From the sequence record MZ234026.1: 45,144 nucleotides of DNA; one strand, written 5' to 3'. Positions 608 to 12,786 of this stretch are shown piece after piece. The stretch is from Escherichia phage vB_EcoS-CHD2B1. The notes below the pieces were generated by a model. That model was not told the DNA's origin and searched no databases. It worked only from the letters and a program-made list of their open reading frames with translations. Position 1 is the first letter of the stretch, and each line of letters opens with the position of its first letter. Both the position numbers and the translations under genes were made by a program.

Positions 608-2872
608 TTAATCTTTCAGGTCATCATCGGTCGCTGAAAGCGTGATGGGTATATCCGATTTTATGACCAGATTCGACGACCCATAGATGGCCCCGGTGTG
701 TGGATCTGTATAAAATCCGAGCACGCCGCGCTCCACCATATCGTCAATTGCCTTCGTCGATGTGCCACCTTTCGCAAGTCCAGCCTGGCGGACGATTGCC
801 GATTTACTGAATCCAGTATGGTCCGGGTTATCTTCCATCAGTTTTTCCAGTGCCGCATAAAGCACCTTCTCTTTCTCGTTGCGCGGTCCGGCGGTGTTCT
901 CTTCCTTAACTGCTGCCTTGCCTGCTGCCTTAGCCTGTTCGATAGCGAACGGCGCCAGGGCGACCGGTACGAGGTAAAGAGTCTCGTCGCGTGGCGTGGA
1001 GGCAATTGGCTTGACGTCCCAACCGGCAACCACATCGCCGAAGTCTGGCCCGGTGCTGGTGGACTGGTGGGCTTCGAACGCATCAGACTTACGGAGATCC
1101 ACCTTAACTTTGCACTTGAGCAGGACGAAGCCACGCGGCGCTTGCTTGATGCCGTTACGTGACTTTTCGTGATACAGGTTAAGCTGGCCTGGCTGATTAT
1201 CGTCCGGCTGTTCCAGGAAGAACGCAGAATCTACAGCACCATGAAGCGCGCCGGACCCGCGTGGTGACCTGCTGCCGTTTGCACCCTTAGCCGGGTGATG
1301 GATGACACCCGCACTGCCACCTGTATTTTCCGCAATGGACTTCAGCGCCTTGACCACTTCGCCCATATCGCTTGCGTTGTTCTCGTCGAACGGTTTGGCA
1401 TCAGCGGACCGCAGCGCTACAGTCTGGTTGAGTGAGTCGAAGGCCACCAGGCCAACCGGCTCCCCGTTAGCGGTGCGGTTGATAAAGCTGATAACCTCGC
1501 GCAAGCCTGACTTGCTGGTAATATCCCAGCCGCGTGATTGCAGGTCGATAATGTGCAGCTTGTCGAGGTCGTGCTCGTATTTAATCTGCAATGCTTCCTT
1601 ACGCTGGTTGGAGGCTTCGCCACCTTCCGCATCGAAATAGAAGCAATGCGACTGGACGACCTTCGCGCCACCGAACGGAATCCCCGCGGCAACAGCGCCC
1701 ATCTGGCCCAGCACGTAGAACGACTTACCAATGTTCGACTCACCCGCCATATACCAGGTAGATTTGAAGTTGACCAGGCCTTCGATAATCGGGTCGTGCT
1801 TACTGAACAGAGCGACCGGCTCGTTGTCCAGGTCAGCGTCGGTGCATTCGCCGTACTCGTCGCCGTCTCCGACCGCATCAACAATATGTTCATAGCACGA
1901 TTCCACTTCCTCGTCGTCCAGTCCGGGAAGGATGGCGGCGATTTGCTTGCGTGACATGTTGTGTGGCTCGACGTTCAAGTGGTCCGGGATGCCGATCAGA
2001 CGCAGCGCCAGGTGCTGGTGTTTATTCAGTTCGGAACAGAATTCGTTGCCGGTGTGCATACACTTGAAACGGATCTCGCCATCCTTAACCATGATAGCCG
2101 TCGACCCGCCGCCGCTATGCAGGTGCTCGTTCGGGCAAGGCACTTCATAACCGCGACCGGATGACAGTGGTTCAAAGCCAGCCTGGAAGCACCAATCCAG
2201 AATGCCGTCCGCCACGCCATCGGCGCCCTGGGTCAGTTCGCGGCGCACTTCCTCTTTCTCCACTCCCAGCTTGTCAGCCAGGCGAAGCAGACGACGGACA
2301 CGGGCGCGCTTTCCGTAGTGGCACTTTATGACAGACTGCTGGTGAGGCAGGTACATAAGGCGGTTGGTGTCTTTCGTACAATCGTCGAAGTCCACATCTG
2401 ACAGGCCCAGTTGGTCTAATAGCGCATACTGGACGCGGCCCAGGTCTTCAGCCGGTACAGGCTTGTCAGTGAGCACCAGGAAACGGGCGCAACGTGTGCC
2501 GCCTTTCAGTGGGTGACGGTCGCCGGTTGTGGTGTGGAATACGTGCTCCAGGCCAGCGTCGGTGAACGCCTTACGGCAGCGGCGTAAGGTGCGGGTGTCA
2601 GTGCGGTCAATATCGAAGAACAGGATCGAGCGGTCGACCGCACTGGTCTTGCGGCGTAAGCCATCATTGGTATAGGCCACGATGCCATCAGCCTTACGCT
2701 TGCGGCGCGCATACTCGGCTTTATCTTCAGTCTTGTTGATGTGCACCGAGGAGATTTCTTTCGCATCGTTGATAAATTCGAAAAATTCATCAGTGGTCAT
2801 CTCGAAGTTTTCCGCCCTGGCTTTTTCGCCTTTTTTAGCGGGTCTTGTTACTGCGAATTTAATTAAGCTCAT
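608..2872 (-). CDS. DNA primase/helicase (N-terminal primase-polymerase-like domain, Cys/His zinc-binding motif, C-terminal RecA-like helicase with Walker A GESNIGKS)
   Basis: 754-aa ORF; motifs CPNEHLHSGGGS...KCMHTGNE and GESNIGKS...AFDSLN; ATG at 2872. Confidence 0.8.
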   Translation of the reverse strand: MSLIKFAVTRPAKKGEKARAENFEMTTDEFFEFINDAKEISSVHINKTEDKAEYARRKRKADGIVAYTNDGLRRKTSAVDRSILFFDIDRTDTRTLRRCRKAFTDAGLEHVFHTTTGDRHPLKGGTRCARFLVLTDKPVPAEDLGRVQYALLDQLGLSDVDFDDCTKDTNRLMYLPHQQSVIKCHYGKRARVRRLLRLADKLGVEKEEVRRELTQGADGVADGILDWCFQAGFEPLSSGRGYEVPCPNEHLHSGGGSTAIMVKDGEIRFKCMHTGNEFCSELNKHQHLALRLIGIPDHLNVEPHNMSRKQIAAILPGLDDEEVESCYEHIVDAVGDGDEYGECTDADLDNEPVALFSKHDPIIEGLVNFKSTWYMAGESNIGKSFYVLGQMGAVAAGIPFGGAKVVQSHCFYFDAEGGEASNQRKEALQIKYEHDLDKLHIIDLQSRGWDITSKSGLREVISFINRTANGEPVGLVAFDSLNQTVALRSADAKPFDENNASDMGEVVKALKSIAENTGGSAGVIHHPAKGANGSRSPRGSGALHGAVDSAFFLEQPDDNQPGQLNLYHEKSRNGIKQAPRGFVLLKCKVKVDLRKSDAFEAHQSTSTGPDFGDVVAGWDVKPIASTPRDETLYLVPVALAPFAIEQAKAAGKAAVKEENTAGPRNEKEKVLYAALEKLMEDNPDHTGFSKSAIVRQAGLAKGGTSTKAIDDMVERGVLGFYTDPHTGAIYGSSNLVIKSDIPITLSATDDDLKD

Positions 2873-2882
2873 TGCCGTTGCC

Positions 2883-3212
2883 TTACTTAGAAGTTTTATT
2901 ATTGCGTACCCAGGAGCGCACGGTGCTCTGATTAATTCCAGTTAACTCGGCAATCATCGCCCAGGACTTGCCCTCGTCGCGCAAACGGATAACCTGCTTT
3001 TTGTATTCTTCCATTTCTTCATTGTGTTTTTGCAGCTTGCTTGCTGCCGTACCGTTGAGTAATTCCAGCTTGGCGCGCAATTCTTTTTCGACACTGCGCA
3101 GGCGTTCGATTTCAAATAACGCCGCACCAACGGCATCGGTATAAGCCCAGGACCGGCTTGTCTCACCACTAACGGTCTTAGTTAACATTTCGATTGCGTC
3201 GTTGATATGCAT
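2883..3212 (-). CDS. Small DNA-binding protein with C-terminal helix-turn-helix (candidate transcriptional regulator)
   Basis: 109-aa ORF, coiled-coil middle, C-terminal WAMIAELTGINQSTVRSWV HTH-like segment; RBS AGGAGA 6 nt upstream of ATG. Confidence 0.55.
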   Translation of the reverse strand: MHINDAIEMLTKTVSGETSRSWAYTDAVGAALFEIERLRSVEKELRAKLELLNGTAASKLQKHNEEMEEYKKQVIRLRDEGKSWAMIAELTGINQSTVRSWVRNNKTSK

Positions 3213-3258
3213 TGTTCTGTCTCCTATTGGTTAATGACCAACGAAACTACACCTAAAA

Positions 3259-3287
3259 TTGCAGGGTGTCAACTCCTTTTGTATATT
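3259..3287 (+). promoter_or_regulatory. Sigma70-like promoter TTGCAG-N17-TATATT
   Basis: -35 at 3259..3264, 17-nt spacer, -10 at 3282..3287; lies in the divergent intergenic region. Confidence 0.4.
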
Positions 3288-3342
3288 GAAACGGGCGCGC
3301 ACGCGTGTAATAATAATCACGTCTCATTGTCTCTTATTGGTT

Positions 3343-3378
3343 AGCGCCGTCGCATTTTGCCTCGGCGCTTTTTTTTTG
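3343..3378 (+). terminator. Rho-independent terminator (AGCGCCG ... CGGCGCT followed by 9 T)
   Basis: GC-rich inverted repeat 3343..3369 followed by T-run 3369..3377, about 80 nt downstream of the promoter at 3259..3287. Confidence 0.5.
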
Positions 3379-3388
3379 AAATTAGTTG

Positions 3389-3418
3389 TTGACACCCCAC
3401 CTGCAACCAATCTATTAT
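3389..3418 (+). promoter_or_regulatory. Strong sigma70-like early promoter TTGACA-N18-TATTAT; TGCAACCAA motif sits in the spacer
   Basis: Consensus -35 TTGACA at 3389..3394, -10 TATTAT at 3413..3418; upstream of the plus-strand operon starting at 3615. Confidence 0.55.
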
Positions 3419-3614
3419 TCACTCCGTCGACAGGATGCAGGACGCAAACTGGAGAGGGGCAACGCAGGGGCCGGATCGAAGTGTCAGGATTCCCAACCGT
3501 GATTATATAACCAGGTCCACTACCCGAAAGGGAGAACGCGTAACCTGGCACTATGTTAAGGCCACCGACGAAGTTGACTGCCGACACCTAAACTTAACCA
3601 ATCGGAGATATACC

Positions 3615-4133
3615 ATGTTTGAGCAAATCGTAAACCTGATCACACGCGGCGTAGTAGCACTGGAAACCATCGCTAAGCATTATGAAACTGCTGGCGCTGC
3701 CGTTGGTAAACAGGAAGCGAAGAAAGCCCCGGCTAAGGGCAAGGCAAAAGAAGAAGTAGTCGAAGATGACGACGCTGAAGACGAAGCACCGGCTAAGACC
3801 AAAAAAGCGCCAGCAAAGGGCATGGCTAAGAAAGAAGCCGTAGAAGAAGACGACGCGGACGACGAAGAAGAAGCCCCGGCGAAATCTAAGAAAGCACCGG
3901 CGAAAGGTAAAGGCAAGAAAGATGCCGATCCGCTGAAAGAGATGCGCGACGAAATCAAGCAGTATGCCGCTATTATTGCTGGCGGTGATGACGACGACGC
4001 AAACGACGAATTTGACGACCTGCTGGAAGAATTCGAAATTAAATCCGTTGCCAAGCTGGAAGATGACGACGTGGAAGAGTTCCACCAGGAATTAAAAGCA
4101 ATCGTCGAAACTTATTTCGAATTAGAAGATTAA
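3615..4133 (+). CDS. Highly acidic repeat protein (alternating Lys-rich KKAPAKGK and Asp/Glu-rich blocks); candidate DNA-mimic or host-takeover protein
   Basis: ATG at 3615 with GGAG RBS; in-frame upstream ATG at 3435 has no RBS; repeats EDEAPAKTKKAPAKG / EEEAPAKSKKAPAKG; first gene after the early promoter. Confidence 0.6.
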   Translation: MFEQIVNLITRGVVALETIAKHYETAGAAVGKQEAKKAPAKGKAKEEVVEDDDAEDEAPAKTKKAPAKGMAKKEAVEEDDADDEEEAPAKSKKAPAKGKGKKDADPLKEMRDEIKQYAAIIAGGDDDDANDEFDDLLEEFEIKSVAKLEDDDVEEFHQELKAIVETYFELED

Positions 4134-4137
4134 TATA

Positions 4138-4263
4138 ATGGACTATGAAATGAGAATCACGCTCGATTTCATAGCAGAAAATTGGGCGGCATTCACCGCC
4201 TTCTGCGAAGAAAGAGGCGACGACCCGGACGAGGTTTATAGACAACTCGGCGGTGAAGATTAA
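4138..4263 (+). CDS. Small acidic hypothetical protein (41 aa)
   Basis: ATG at 4138 two nt after the upstream stop; ends just before terminator 4270..4298; below the ORF-track size cutoff. Confidence 0.3.
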   Translation: MDYEMRITLDFIAENWAAFTAFCEERGDDPDEVYRQLGGED

Positions 4264-12094: not shown

Positions 12095-12786
12095 TTATCT
12101 GGTCATTATTTGACGGCAGCGGCTTGATGATAGAGCGCGCTGCCGAGATGGGGCATAAATGCTACTGTTTCAACTACTCGGAAGCCGATCACGGGTCTTA
12201 CCTTGACTACCGGATTTATGGTCGCGGTATCCGCTATCGTAACGAGTTTATCGATCTGGACTTCGTGGACCGCGCGATGAATGGCGATTTCGGCACGCCG
12301 GATATTATCTACGCGTTTCCGCCGTGTACGGATCTGGCGGTGAGCGGTGCGACAGCTTTCCCGTGCAAGCGTGCGAAAGACCCCGCCTTTCAGCTTAAGG
12401 CAGTGCGCACCGCGAAGATTGCCGCTTACCTGGGTGACTTCTTTGAAGTGCCATATATGATTGAGAATCCGCGCAGTGTGCTATCCACCCAGTGGCGCAA
12501 GCCAGACCACTCGTTTGATCCGTGGGAGTATGGCGGCTATCTGCCGGAGGATGACGTACATCCGTTGTTCCCGGAATACATCAACGACCGCGATTCATAT
12601 CCAAAGCTGACCTGTTTATGGACCGGCAATGGCTTTCGTATGCCGGAGAAAAAGCCGGTATTCGTTGAAAAAGGGTACTCGAAGCAGTATAGTCGCCTCG
12701 GTGGCAAATCTGCCCGCACCAAATTAATCCGGTCGCTCACTCCGCGCGGCTTCGCAATTGCAGTCAATGAGGAAAATTTAAAATGA
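12091..12786 (+). CDS. DNA (cytosine-5)-methyltransferase-like protein, short form
   Basis: GTG start overlapping helicase stop; motif I SLFDGSG, motif IV FPPC, ENV-like MIENP. Confidence 0.55.
   Translation: MIIWSLFDGSGLMIERAAEMGHKCYCFNYSEADHGSYLDYRIYGRGIRYRNEFIDLDFVDRAMNGDFGTPDIIYAFPPCTDLAVSGATAFPCKRAKDPAFQLKAVRTAKIAAYLGDFFEVPYMIENPRSVLSTQWRKPDHSFDPWEYGGYLPEDDVHPLFPEYINDRDSYPKLTCLWTGNGFRMPEKKPVFVEKGYSKQYSRLGGKSARTKLIRSLTPRGFAIAVNEENLK

Follow-up and report, generated by a model that had tools for sequence, protein, structure and literature searches.

Organization of the early control region

The DNA analyzed here (the window) is the whole 45,144-nucleotide stretch of Escherichia phage vB_EcoS-CHD2B1 held in record MZ234026.1. 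The phage is a Dhillonvirus i.e. a virulent siphophage of E. coli of the HK578/EP23/SO-1 type. A total of 175 phage records match positions 2800..4200, where identity to vB_EcoS-22664B1 and vB_EcoS_WFI is 99.4%. The candidate small-RNA (sRNA) locus lies inside a 402-bp gap that separates two divergent genes in this region, which contains the following features (+, rightward; -, leftward):

2883..3212 (-): gene for a 109-aa HTH protein, the first leftward gene, followed by that for a 754-aa primase-helicase
3244..3272 (-): leftward promoter of the HTH gene as read from the bases (TTGACA 3272..3267, 17-nt spacer, TAGTTT 3249..3244)
3286..3314 (+): candidate sRNA promoter (TTGAAA 3286..3291, 17-nt GC-rich spacer, TG 3306..3307, AATAAT 3309..3314)
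3300..3307 (no strand): palindrome CACGCGTG, within the spacer of the candidate sRNA promoter
3315..3320 (+): discriminator, a variable patch between the -10 hexamer and the predicted start (0/6 columns invariant, diversity 0.21, 1-nt indels)
3321..3343 (+): predicted single-stranded 5' segment, or seed, GUCUCAUUGUCUCUUAUUGGUUA, with the predicted start at G3321 (+/- 2)
3343..3369 (+): terminator hairpin (dG -16.7 kcal/mol, z -5.1), with conserved pairing
3369..3377 (+): U-tract of 9 T; neither strand of the 45-kb window has another T-run of at least 8
3389..3418 (+): main rightward early promoter, TTGACA-18-TATTAT (11/12 match), conserved and annotated in HK578
3615 (+): ATG of the gene for a 172-aa acidic protein, the first rightward gene, with other early genes next

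An earlier, sequence-only reading had assigned the interval to a divergent control region that lies immediately before the main early promoter; the leftward and rightward TTGACA promoters listed above bear this out. The predicted start of the leftward promoter is near 3237, which gives the HTH gene a 5' UTR of ~25 nt; its GTGTCAA is invariant in 22 relatives, and the HK578 RefSeq record annotates a promoter at the equivalent place. The main rightward early promoter begins 11 nt past the last T of the terminator and has a predicted start near 3425.

The only Pfam match of the 109-aa protein is C-terminal and is HTH_23 / sigma-70 region-4-like. Its label differs between records (transposase, resolvase, 'DNA recombination nuclease inhibitor gamma'), and in the phage collection searched the protein is confined to Dhillonvirus. 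In HK578 and CHD5UKE2 the leftward allele is a different, longer one (143-149 aa), the mosaic boundary lying immediately left of the leftward promoter. The control region was also found in MG065648.1 and OQ221563.1, which are labeled 'Campylobacter phage A144' and 'Acinetobacter phage NJ01'; the intergenic DNA of MG065648.1 matches at 93.5%, and the 109-aa protein is 92.7% (MG065648.1) and 94.5% (OQ221563.1) identical. Host mislabelling or contamination is the likely explanation of these two records. The cumulative GC skew of the window has its minimum near 2-3 kb, but the skew tracks gene orientation and is therefore no firm guide to an origin or to a role of a primer RNA.

A conserved extended -10 promoter sets the predicted start of the RNA

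The sequence-only reading had begun its candidate RNA at a sigma70-like promoter, TTGCAG-N17-TATATT, at 3259..3287. These letters are present, but their status as a promoter does not hold up. The hexamer TTGCAG (3259..3264) matches TTGACA at three of six positions and overlaps the spacer of the leftward promoter; the whole site scores 8/12, and 143 sites in the window equal it in quality. Among relatives the -35 hexamer reads CTGCAT, CCGCAA or ATAAAC (diversity 0.47, 0 invariant positions), G or A replaces the first T of the -10 hexamer (3282..3287), and a 1-nt indel occurs in the spacer. We therefore rejected this site as a promoter, being at chance level and not conserved among relatives.

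The promoter scan found TTGAAA-17-TGtAATAAT, 27 nt downstream of the rejected site, with a 10/12 match and an extended -10 TG. No other site in the window combines a match of 10/12 or better with the TG (0.22 such sites expected in shuffles); the hexamers are spaced within 17 +/- 1 nt and the TG occupies -15/-14. Among relatives 26 of its 29 positions are invariant (diversity 0.016), and the HK578 record NC_019724 annotates a promoter on exactly these bases. We therefore predict that 3286..3314 is a sigma-70 promoter of the extended -10 type. Outside the control region, the only other promoter-like site of at least 10/12 in the window is TTGAAA-17-TATAGT at 12665..12693 (+).

As the conserved promoter is the one at 3286..3314, the predicted RNA is ~57 nt long (3321..3377) and not ~80 nt, the length first suggested. 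The earlier description of a small regulatory RNA unit is otherwise favored by the comparative evidence i.e. a non-coding unit with a strong terminator. The palindrome CACGCGTG, previously noted as part of the non-coding stretch, is indeed present, but it falls in the promoter spacer and is therefore probably outside the RNA. It occurs once in the window versus 1.8 copies expected by chance, so that no over-representation was seen there. The palindrome is nearly invariant in relatives, and it is possible that it serves as a regulator-binding site.

The RNA would end at a strong intrinsic terminator

The terminator claimed at 3343..3377 was confirmed and is stronger than had been claimed. The outer helix of the hairpin runs from A3343-U3369 to G3349-C3363 (7 bp) and is followed by a 2x2 internal loop, an apical stem of 3 bp (G3352-C3360, C3353-G3359 and A3354-U3358) and the loop UUU. 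When the RNA of 3340..3378 was compared with 200 shuffles, none folded as well (z = -5.1). The GC-rich hairpin stands directly before the U-tract, the sole long T-run of the window, and in relatives the T-run remains long although its length varies. The consensus scan missed this terminator only because of the internal loop, and terminators predicted independently are annotated here in the records of CS16 and WF5505.

Analysis of 22 distinct relatives revealed that the hairpin has been kept in evolution as a structure: all 198 of the 198 pair cells are paired as standard pairs, while the four internal-loop bases are free to vary. In the clade of Ioannina, L014 and LM40P1 there are G-C to U-A and G-C to C-G double changes together with an A-U to G-U change; since both compensatory changes come from one clade, they may represent one or two events. 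The element at 3343..3377 is therefore predicted to be an intrinsic (Rho-independent) terminator.

Neither the promoter scan nor manual reading found a leftward promoter to the right of the hairpin, which makes it unlikely that the hairpin serves a minus-strand RNA; on that strand the hairpin is followed by UAACCAAU, which has no U's. With the leftward genes to its left and the main promoter downstream of it, the terminator can end only rightward transcripts that start within 3273..3340.

The predicted 57-nt RNA has an almost invariant single-stranded 5' segment

With 57 nt enclosed by promoter and terminator, the locus forms, on this evidence from sequence, a discrete non-coding unit. The predicted RNA (3321..3377) consists of a 23-nt unstructured 5' segment, the hairpin and the U-tail. 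Both the MFE and the centroid folds leave the first 22-23 nt unpaired, which makes this segment accessible as a seed. Conservation follows the same division: downstream of the variable discriminator, invariance restarts at G3321, 7 nt past the -10 hexamer, and continues up to the hairpin. In 28 distinct sequences 22 of the 23 seed columns are invariant and diversity is 0.0086. In the same set the HTH coding sequence has a diversity of 0.21, and the remaining intergenic DNA on the left one of 0.19. The sole changes within the seed are a 1-nt deletion (Ioannina clade) and a 5-nt duplication (Opt212).

The 3' part of the unit has the arrangement of an Hfq-type module i.e. UCUUAUUGGUUA, the hairpin and, in the window, U9. 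We consider that a discrete RNA is probably made from the locus. By its layout the candidate would be a phage-encoded trans-acting sRNA of the Hfq type, and the locus is most likely a new phage sRNA gene, a prediction that is well supported on sequence evidence.

A structured leader element in the rightward operon

The 5' leader of the rightward operon, from the predicted start of the early promoter (~3425) up to the ribosome-binding site for the ATG at 3615, contains a further discrete structured RNA element of ~160 nt (3427..3588, +). Its invariant junctions are GGAGAGG, GCAACGCAGGGGC, GAUCGWAGUGUCAGGAUUCCCAACCGUGA, CACU, AGAACGC and AGGCYACCGACGAAG, and several of its helices vary in sequence while the pairing is kept. 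The closing helix occurs as GUCGACAG/CUGCCGAC, GACGGGC/GCCCGUC and GGGCGGCG/CGCCGCCC; the inner helix as CCAGG/CCUGG, CUAUC/GAUAG, CGCAC/GUGCG, CAUAAC/GUUAUG, CAUGAU/AUCAUG and CAUUGG/CCAAUG; and the hairpin as CCC..GGG, GCC..GGC, CCG..CGG and CUC..GAG. The element is optional in Dhillonvirus (it is absent from WF5505, YD-2008.s and Sloth) and also occurs in intergenic gaps of unrelated phages (Warwickvirus tunus, Changchunvirus PHB17, Murrayvirus Lumpael and HeidiAbel_Bas97) and on several IMG/VR contigs. No Rfam family matches it. Its information content is riboswitch- or ribozyme-like, and it is possibly more novel than the candidate sRNA.

The seed is complementary to the ribosome-binding regions of both flanking genes

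The 16-mer 3328..3343 of the seed (TGTCTCTTATTGGTTA) occurs three times in the window at up to 3 mismatches, compared with 0.21 copies expected, and all three copies are confined to this 400-bp control region. One extra copy (3218..3233, a single mismatch) complements the Shine-Dalgarno region of the HTH gene, and the other (3595..3610, -) complements that of the first rightward gene. The orientation of both extra copies makes the respective mRNAs complementary to a plus-strand RNA. The two proposed targets are:

3210..3234 (-): target 1, translation-initiation region of the HTH gene, UUAACCAAUAGGAGACAGAACAAUG (direct repeat D1)
3594..3617 (+): target 2, translation-initiation region of the first rightward gene, UUAACCAAUCGGAGAUAUACCAUG, including the ATG at 3615

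Target 1 forms 16 bp (one G-U) with seed positions 3328..3343 at -23.1 kcal/mol. It is the best non-self site on both strands of the whole window (90 kb scanned), where other sites pair with the seed at -20 to -22 kcal/mol, and the pairing spans most of the predicted ~25-nt 5' UTR. In relatives the same pairing has one or two central mismatches and reaches -16.4 to -19.1 kcal/mol. Where the other leftward allele is present, CHD5UKE2 has 10 contiguous pairs across the start codon through the 5' part of the seed (-16.4 kcal/mol) and HK578 pairs at just -14.4 kcal/mol. Target 2 forms 15 of 16 pairs with the seed at -17.9 kcal/mol, a value that ~1% of windows equal; its site is kept even in relatives without the long leader and is absent in the Ioannina clade. 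Pairing between seed and targets is thus strongest only in the lineage of the present phage, with relatives at -14 to -19 kcal/mol, and no seed-target co-variation was seen among relatives.

Both flanking first genes share the motif UAACCAAU-N-GGAGA, which could be common to the two ribosome-binding sites solely for translation efficiency. The initiation regions at 3213..3234 (-) and 3594..3615 (+) are near-identical, UUAACCAAU(A/C)GGAGA, and form a 22-nt inverted repeat that is 82% complementary. This initiation region resembles the T7 gene 10 leader (UUAACUUUAAGAAGGAGAUAUACAUAUG), and by this analogy UUAACCAAU might act as an epsilon-like translational enhancer.

When the two regions are aligned, CATTG-TTCTG-TCTCCTATTGGTTAA (3210..3234) matches CATTG-TCTCTTATTGGTTAG (3325..3344). 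The seed looks like a duplicated copy of the 5' end of the leftward gene that would be transcribed in antisense, and we infer such an origin for it. Regulation of both flanking genes by the RNA through pairing is a tentative proposal, which on the complementarities above we hold to be possible but somewhat short of an even chance.

Proposed mechanism and alternative explanations

Our preferred reading, to which we give a probability of roughly 60%, is that the interval is an independent small-RNA gene whose ~57-nt RNA pairs with the ribosome-binding sites of both neighbours. In this scheme host sigma-70 RNA polymerase would initiate at the extended -10 promoter 3286..3314, with the RNA starting at about G3321, and transcription would stop within the intrinsic terminator formed by hairpin 3343..3369 and the U-tract that reaches 3377. 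The resulting RNA of ~57 nt would open with an unstructured, U-rich segment of 23 nt and close with a GC hairpin and poly-U tail. In each of the two divergent early operons, the 5' segment would pair with the Shine-Dalgarno sequence of the first gene and the bases upstream of it. These first genes are those for the 109-aa HTH regulator (left) and the 172-aa acidic protein (right), and the pairing would lower or time the translation of both; host mRNAs would be possible additional targets. The analysis shows how the terminator is built and that selection has kept it, that the promoter matches the consensus and is conserved, that nucleotides and not a protein are conserved, and that the seed and the two regions are complementary. 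We infer that the RNA is synthesized, that it has these exact ends, that it depends on Hfq and that it represses the two genes. The most specific version, in which an Hfq-type sRNA derived from a duplicated ribosome-binding region uses one 23-nt seed to co-regulate the first genes of both early operons and possibly host mRNAs, is more doubtful still.

The strongest rival is that the hairpin and T-tract form an insulator, combined with an UP element, that blocks stray rightward transcription from the back-to-back promoter region before the main early promoter is reached; a short RNA would arise but play no part itself. The terminator ends 11 nt ahead of the -35 hexamer of an 11/12 early promoter, and relative to the start near 3425 the T-run falls at about -56..-48 and AAATTAG at about -46..-40. 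Such positions upstream of a promoter are where UP elements are located. The T-run together with GAAATTAG (3369..3388, about -56..-40) has both the position and the composition of an UP element, so the T-tract could be conserved as the UP element of the main early promoter, and terminator and promoter may be coupled at 3369..3388. Promoter-terminator coupling is described as widespread in bacteria in the abstract of a 2026 preprint. However, an insulator leaves unexplained why the 23 nt between start and hairpin are the most conserved stretch of the region (0.0086), why the promoter upstream is invariant and why the seed matches both neighbouring ribosome-binding sites. As a full explanation of the locus we therefore regard it as rather unlikely, although it may well be true in addition to the sRNA.

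Alternatively, the repeats could be DNA operators: the 109-aa HTH protein, or else some factor of the host, would bind TGTCTC(C/T)TATTGGTTA and the GC-rich palindromic spacer (CGGGCGCGCACGCGTG) and so control the three promoters. The motif does occur in three copies confined to the control region, the leftward gene product is an HTH_23 / sigma-70 region-4-like protein, and the spacer of the candidate sRNA promoter is unusually invariant. Against this, the copies lie downstream of the start sites (one ~170 nt from its promoter) and none covers a promoter; of the copies counted from the left, copy 1 has a center that varies among relatives, while copy 2 is invariant; both extra copies fall exactly on Shine-Dalgarno regions in the orientation that RNA pairing needs; and the compensatory changes in the hairpin indicate RNA. 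Operators of this kind are improbable as the explanation.

Less probable again is the RNA of ~84 nt from near 3294 proposed by the sequence-only reading, or an attenuated leader in which GGCGC (3294..3298) competes with the 5' arm GCGCC of the hairpin. Its TTGCAG and TATATT hexamers exist and the GGCGC/GCGCC complementarity is readable in the sequence, but its promoter is at chance level (with 143 equals) and unconserved, and the near-consensus promoter directly downstream would make an attenuated upstream one redundant. The fold of 3294..3378, which had been suggested as a check, went against the longer RNA: the MFE structure retains the terminator with a z of only -2.3, and the extra hairpin uses 3318..3320, within the variable patch 3315..3320. 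Moreover, in an attenuated leader the terminator would stand between a promoter and its genes, but here it precedes the main early promoter (-35 at 3389), and neither fold prediction nor the relatives gave a conserved alternative fold for an attenuator.

The weakest alternative is that the interval encodes a small protein, for which two ORFs can be read:

3327..3253 (-): 24-aa ORF with the RBS-like TAACCAATAAGAGA
3207..3344 (+): 45-aa ORF, present in some GenBank records

These ORFs do exist, and the longer is a hypothetical protein in the annotation of vB_EcoS-101114B2, but a coding role is extremely improbable: relatives use two frames for the 24-aa ORF across one invariant stretch of DNA (DYYYTRARPFQY vs ELLLHACAPVSI), the ORF is truncated in some, and just 2 nt separate its SD-like element from the start codon. 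Most relatives have ATT instead of the ATG that opens the 45-aa ORF, indels shift the frame of this ORF, and Opt212 tolerates a 5-nt duplication within the seed segment. ORFs of 24, 29, 45 and 83 aa were all rejected as coding for lack of coding conservation, in agreement with the earlier judgment that the interval holds no credible ORF.

Significance of the candidate sRNA

Phage-derived sRNAs are a still largely unexplored field (PMC12197685). If the candidate does co-regulate the first genes of both early operons from its one seed, it would act as an RNA 'governor' of the early switch in a strictly virulent coliphage genus, at the place where temperate phages put protein repressors. It would also show how an sRNA may arise out of a duplicated ribosome-binding region. 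The candidate is directly testable: a promoter, a start, a seed and a terminator are clearly delimited in the prediction, which also names two specific targets. Dhillonviruses are common, easily grown and present in standard collections, with records of Bas83, Bas84, Bas85 and SECphi18 among the search matches.

The analysis also corrects database annotation, in which spurious 'hypothetical protein' ORFs are called over the element. Across the promoter, seed and terminator there are the 45-aa ORF (vB_EcoS-101114B2) and an over-extended 245-aa CDS (Ioannina); the coordinates of such annotated ORFs are 3207..3344 (+) in the window, 1219..1953 in L018 and 1195..1332 in L020. They are very likely annotation artefacts.

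Comparison with known RNAs

A search of Rfam 15 at permissive E-values gave best hits for the interval of 15-21 bits (E 0.4-8), compared with gathering scores of 43-72. No match to 3316..3350 was found in 5,426 E. coli genomes, a search for which short seed matches are beyond reach, and the host therefore lacks both a homologue and a long perfect target. When IMG/VR was searched with the seed and metagenomes with the promoter, all contigs recovered were from Dhillonvirus, and no more distant homologues for covariation came to light. One contig, L052 (OQVL01056812.1, 636..690), has the phage sequence joined mid-terminator to an Illumina TruSeq adapter (ACACTCTTTCCCTACACGACGCTCTTCCGATCT); it was rejected as a natural variant, being an assembly chimera. 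Literature searches found no transcriptome or sRNA study of Dhillonvirus. The promoter and the terminator are annotated separately in some records, and we did not find them described jointly as an RNA gene there or in any paper.

In its predicted layout the candidate resembles the Hfq-dependent sRNAs of Enterobacteriaceae, including PreS of lambda (PMC12197685): it has its own sigma-70 promoter, is short, and combines a conserved single-stranded 5' seed with a U-rich stretch, a GC-rich terminator, a long poly-U tail and imperfect complementarity to ribosome-binding regions. It differs from them in lying in the early control region of a strictly virulent siphophage, in having no sequence or Rfam kinship to known sRNAs, and in that its best predicted targets are the two flanking genes of the phage itself and not host genes.

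Among phage RNAs, the closest in function are sar of P22 and OOP of lambda (PMC12197685). The sar RNA is small and, by pairing at the ribosome-binding region of the regulatory gene next to it, blocks the initiation of translation (PMC12197685). The candidate is predicted to have complementarity of this kind to its own regulatory neighbour. However, sar is cis-encoded, opposite its target and fully complementary to it, whereas the candidate would use a 16-nt duplicated copy, possibly against two genes, with no transcript overlap: 3321..3377 overlaps no conserved ORF, and the predicted mRNAs start near 3237 and 3425, so that it is not a cis-encoded antisense RNA. The OOP RNA of lambda overlaps the 3' end of cII and acts via RNase III on a long duplex (PMC12197685). 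Like OOP, the candidate is short, runs from promoter to terminator and lies beside replication and regulation genes; unlike OOP, it has no overlap with a target. In the c4 RNA of P1 and P7, short repeated segments are complementary to the ribosome-binding region of a nearby gene, and the RNA acts in trans on this local target. The c4 RNA is processed out of the operon transcript of its own target, whereas the candidate has a separate promoter and terminator; even so, c4 is closer to the candidate in its logic than either sar or OOP.
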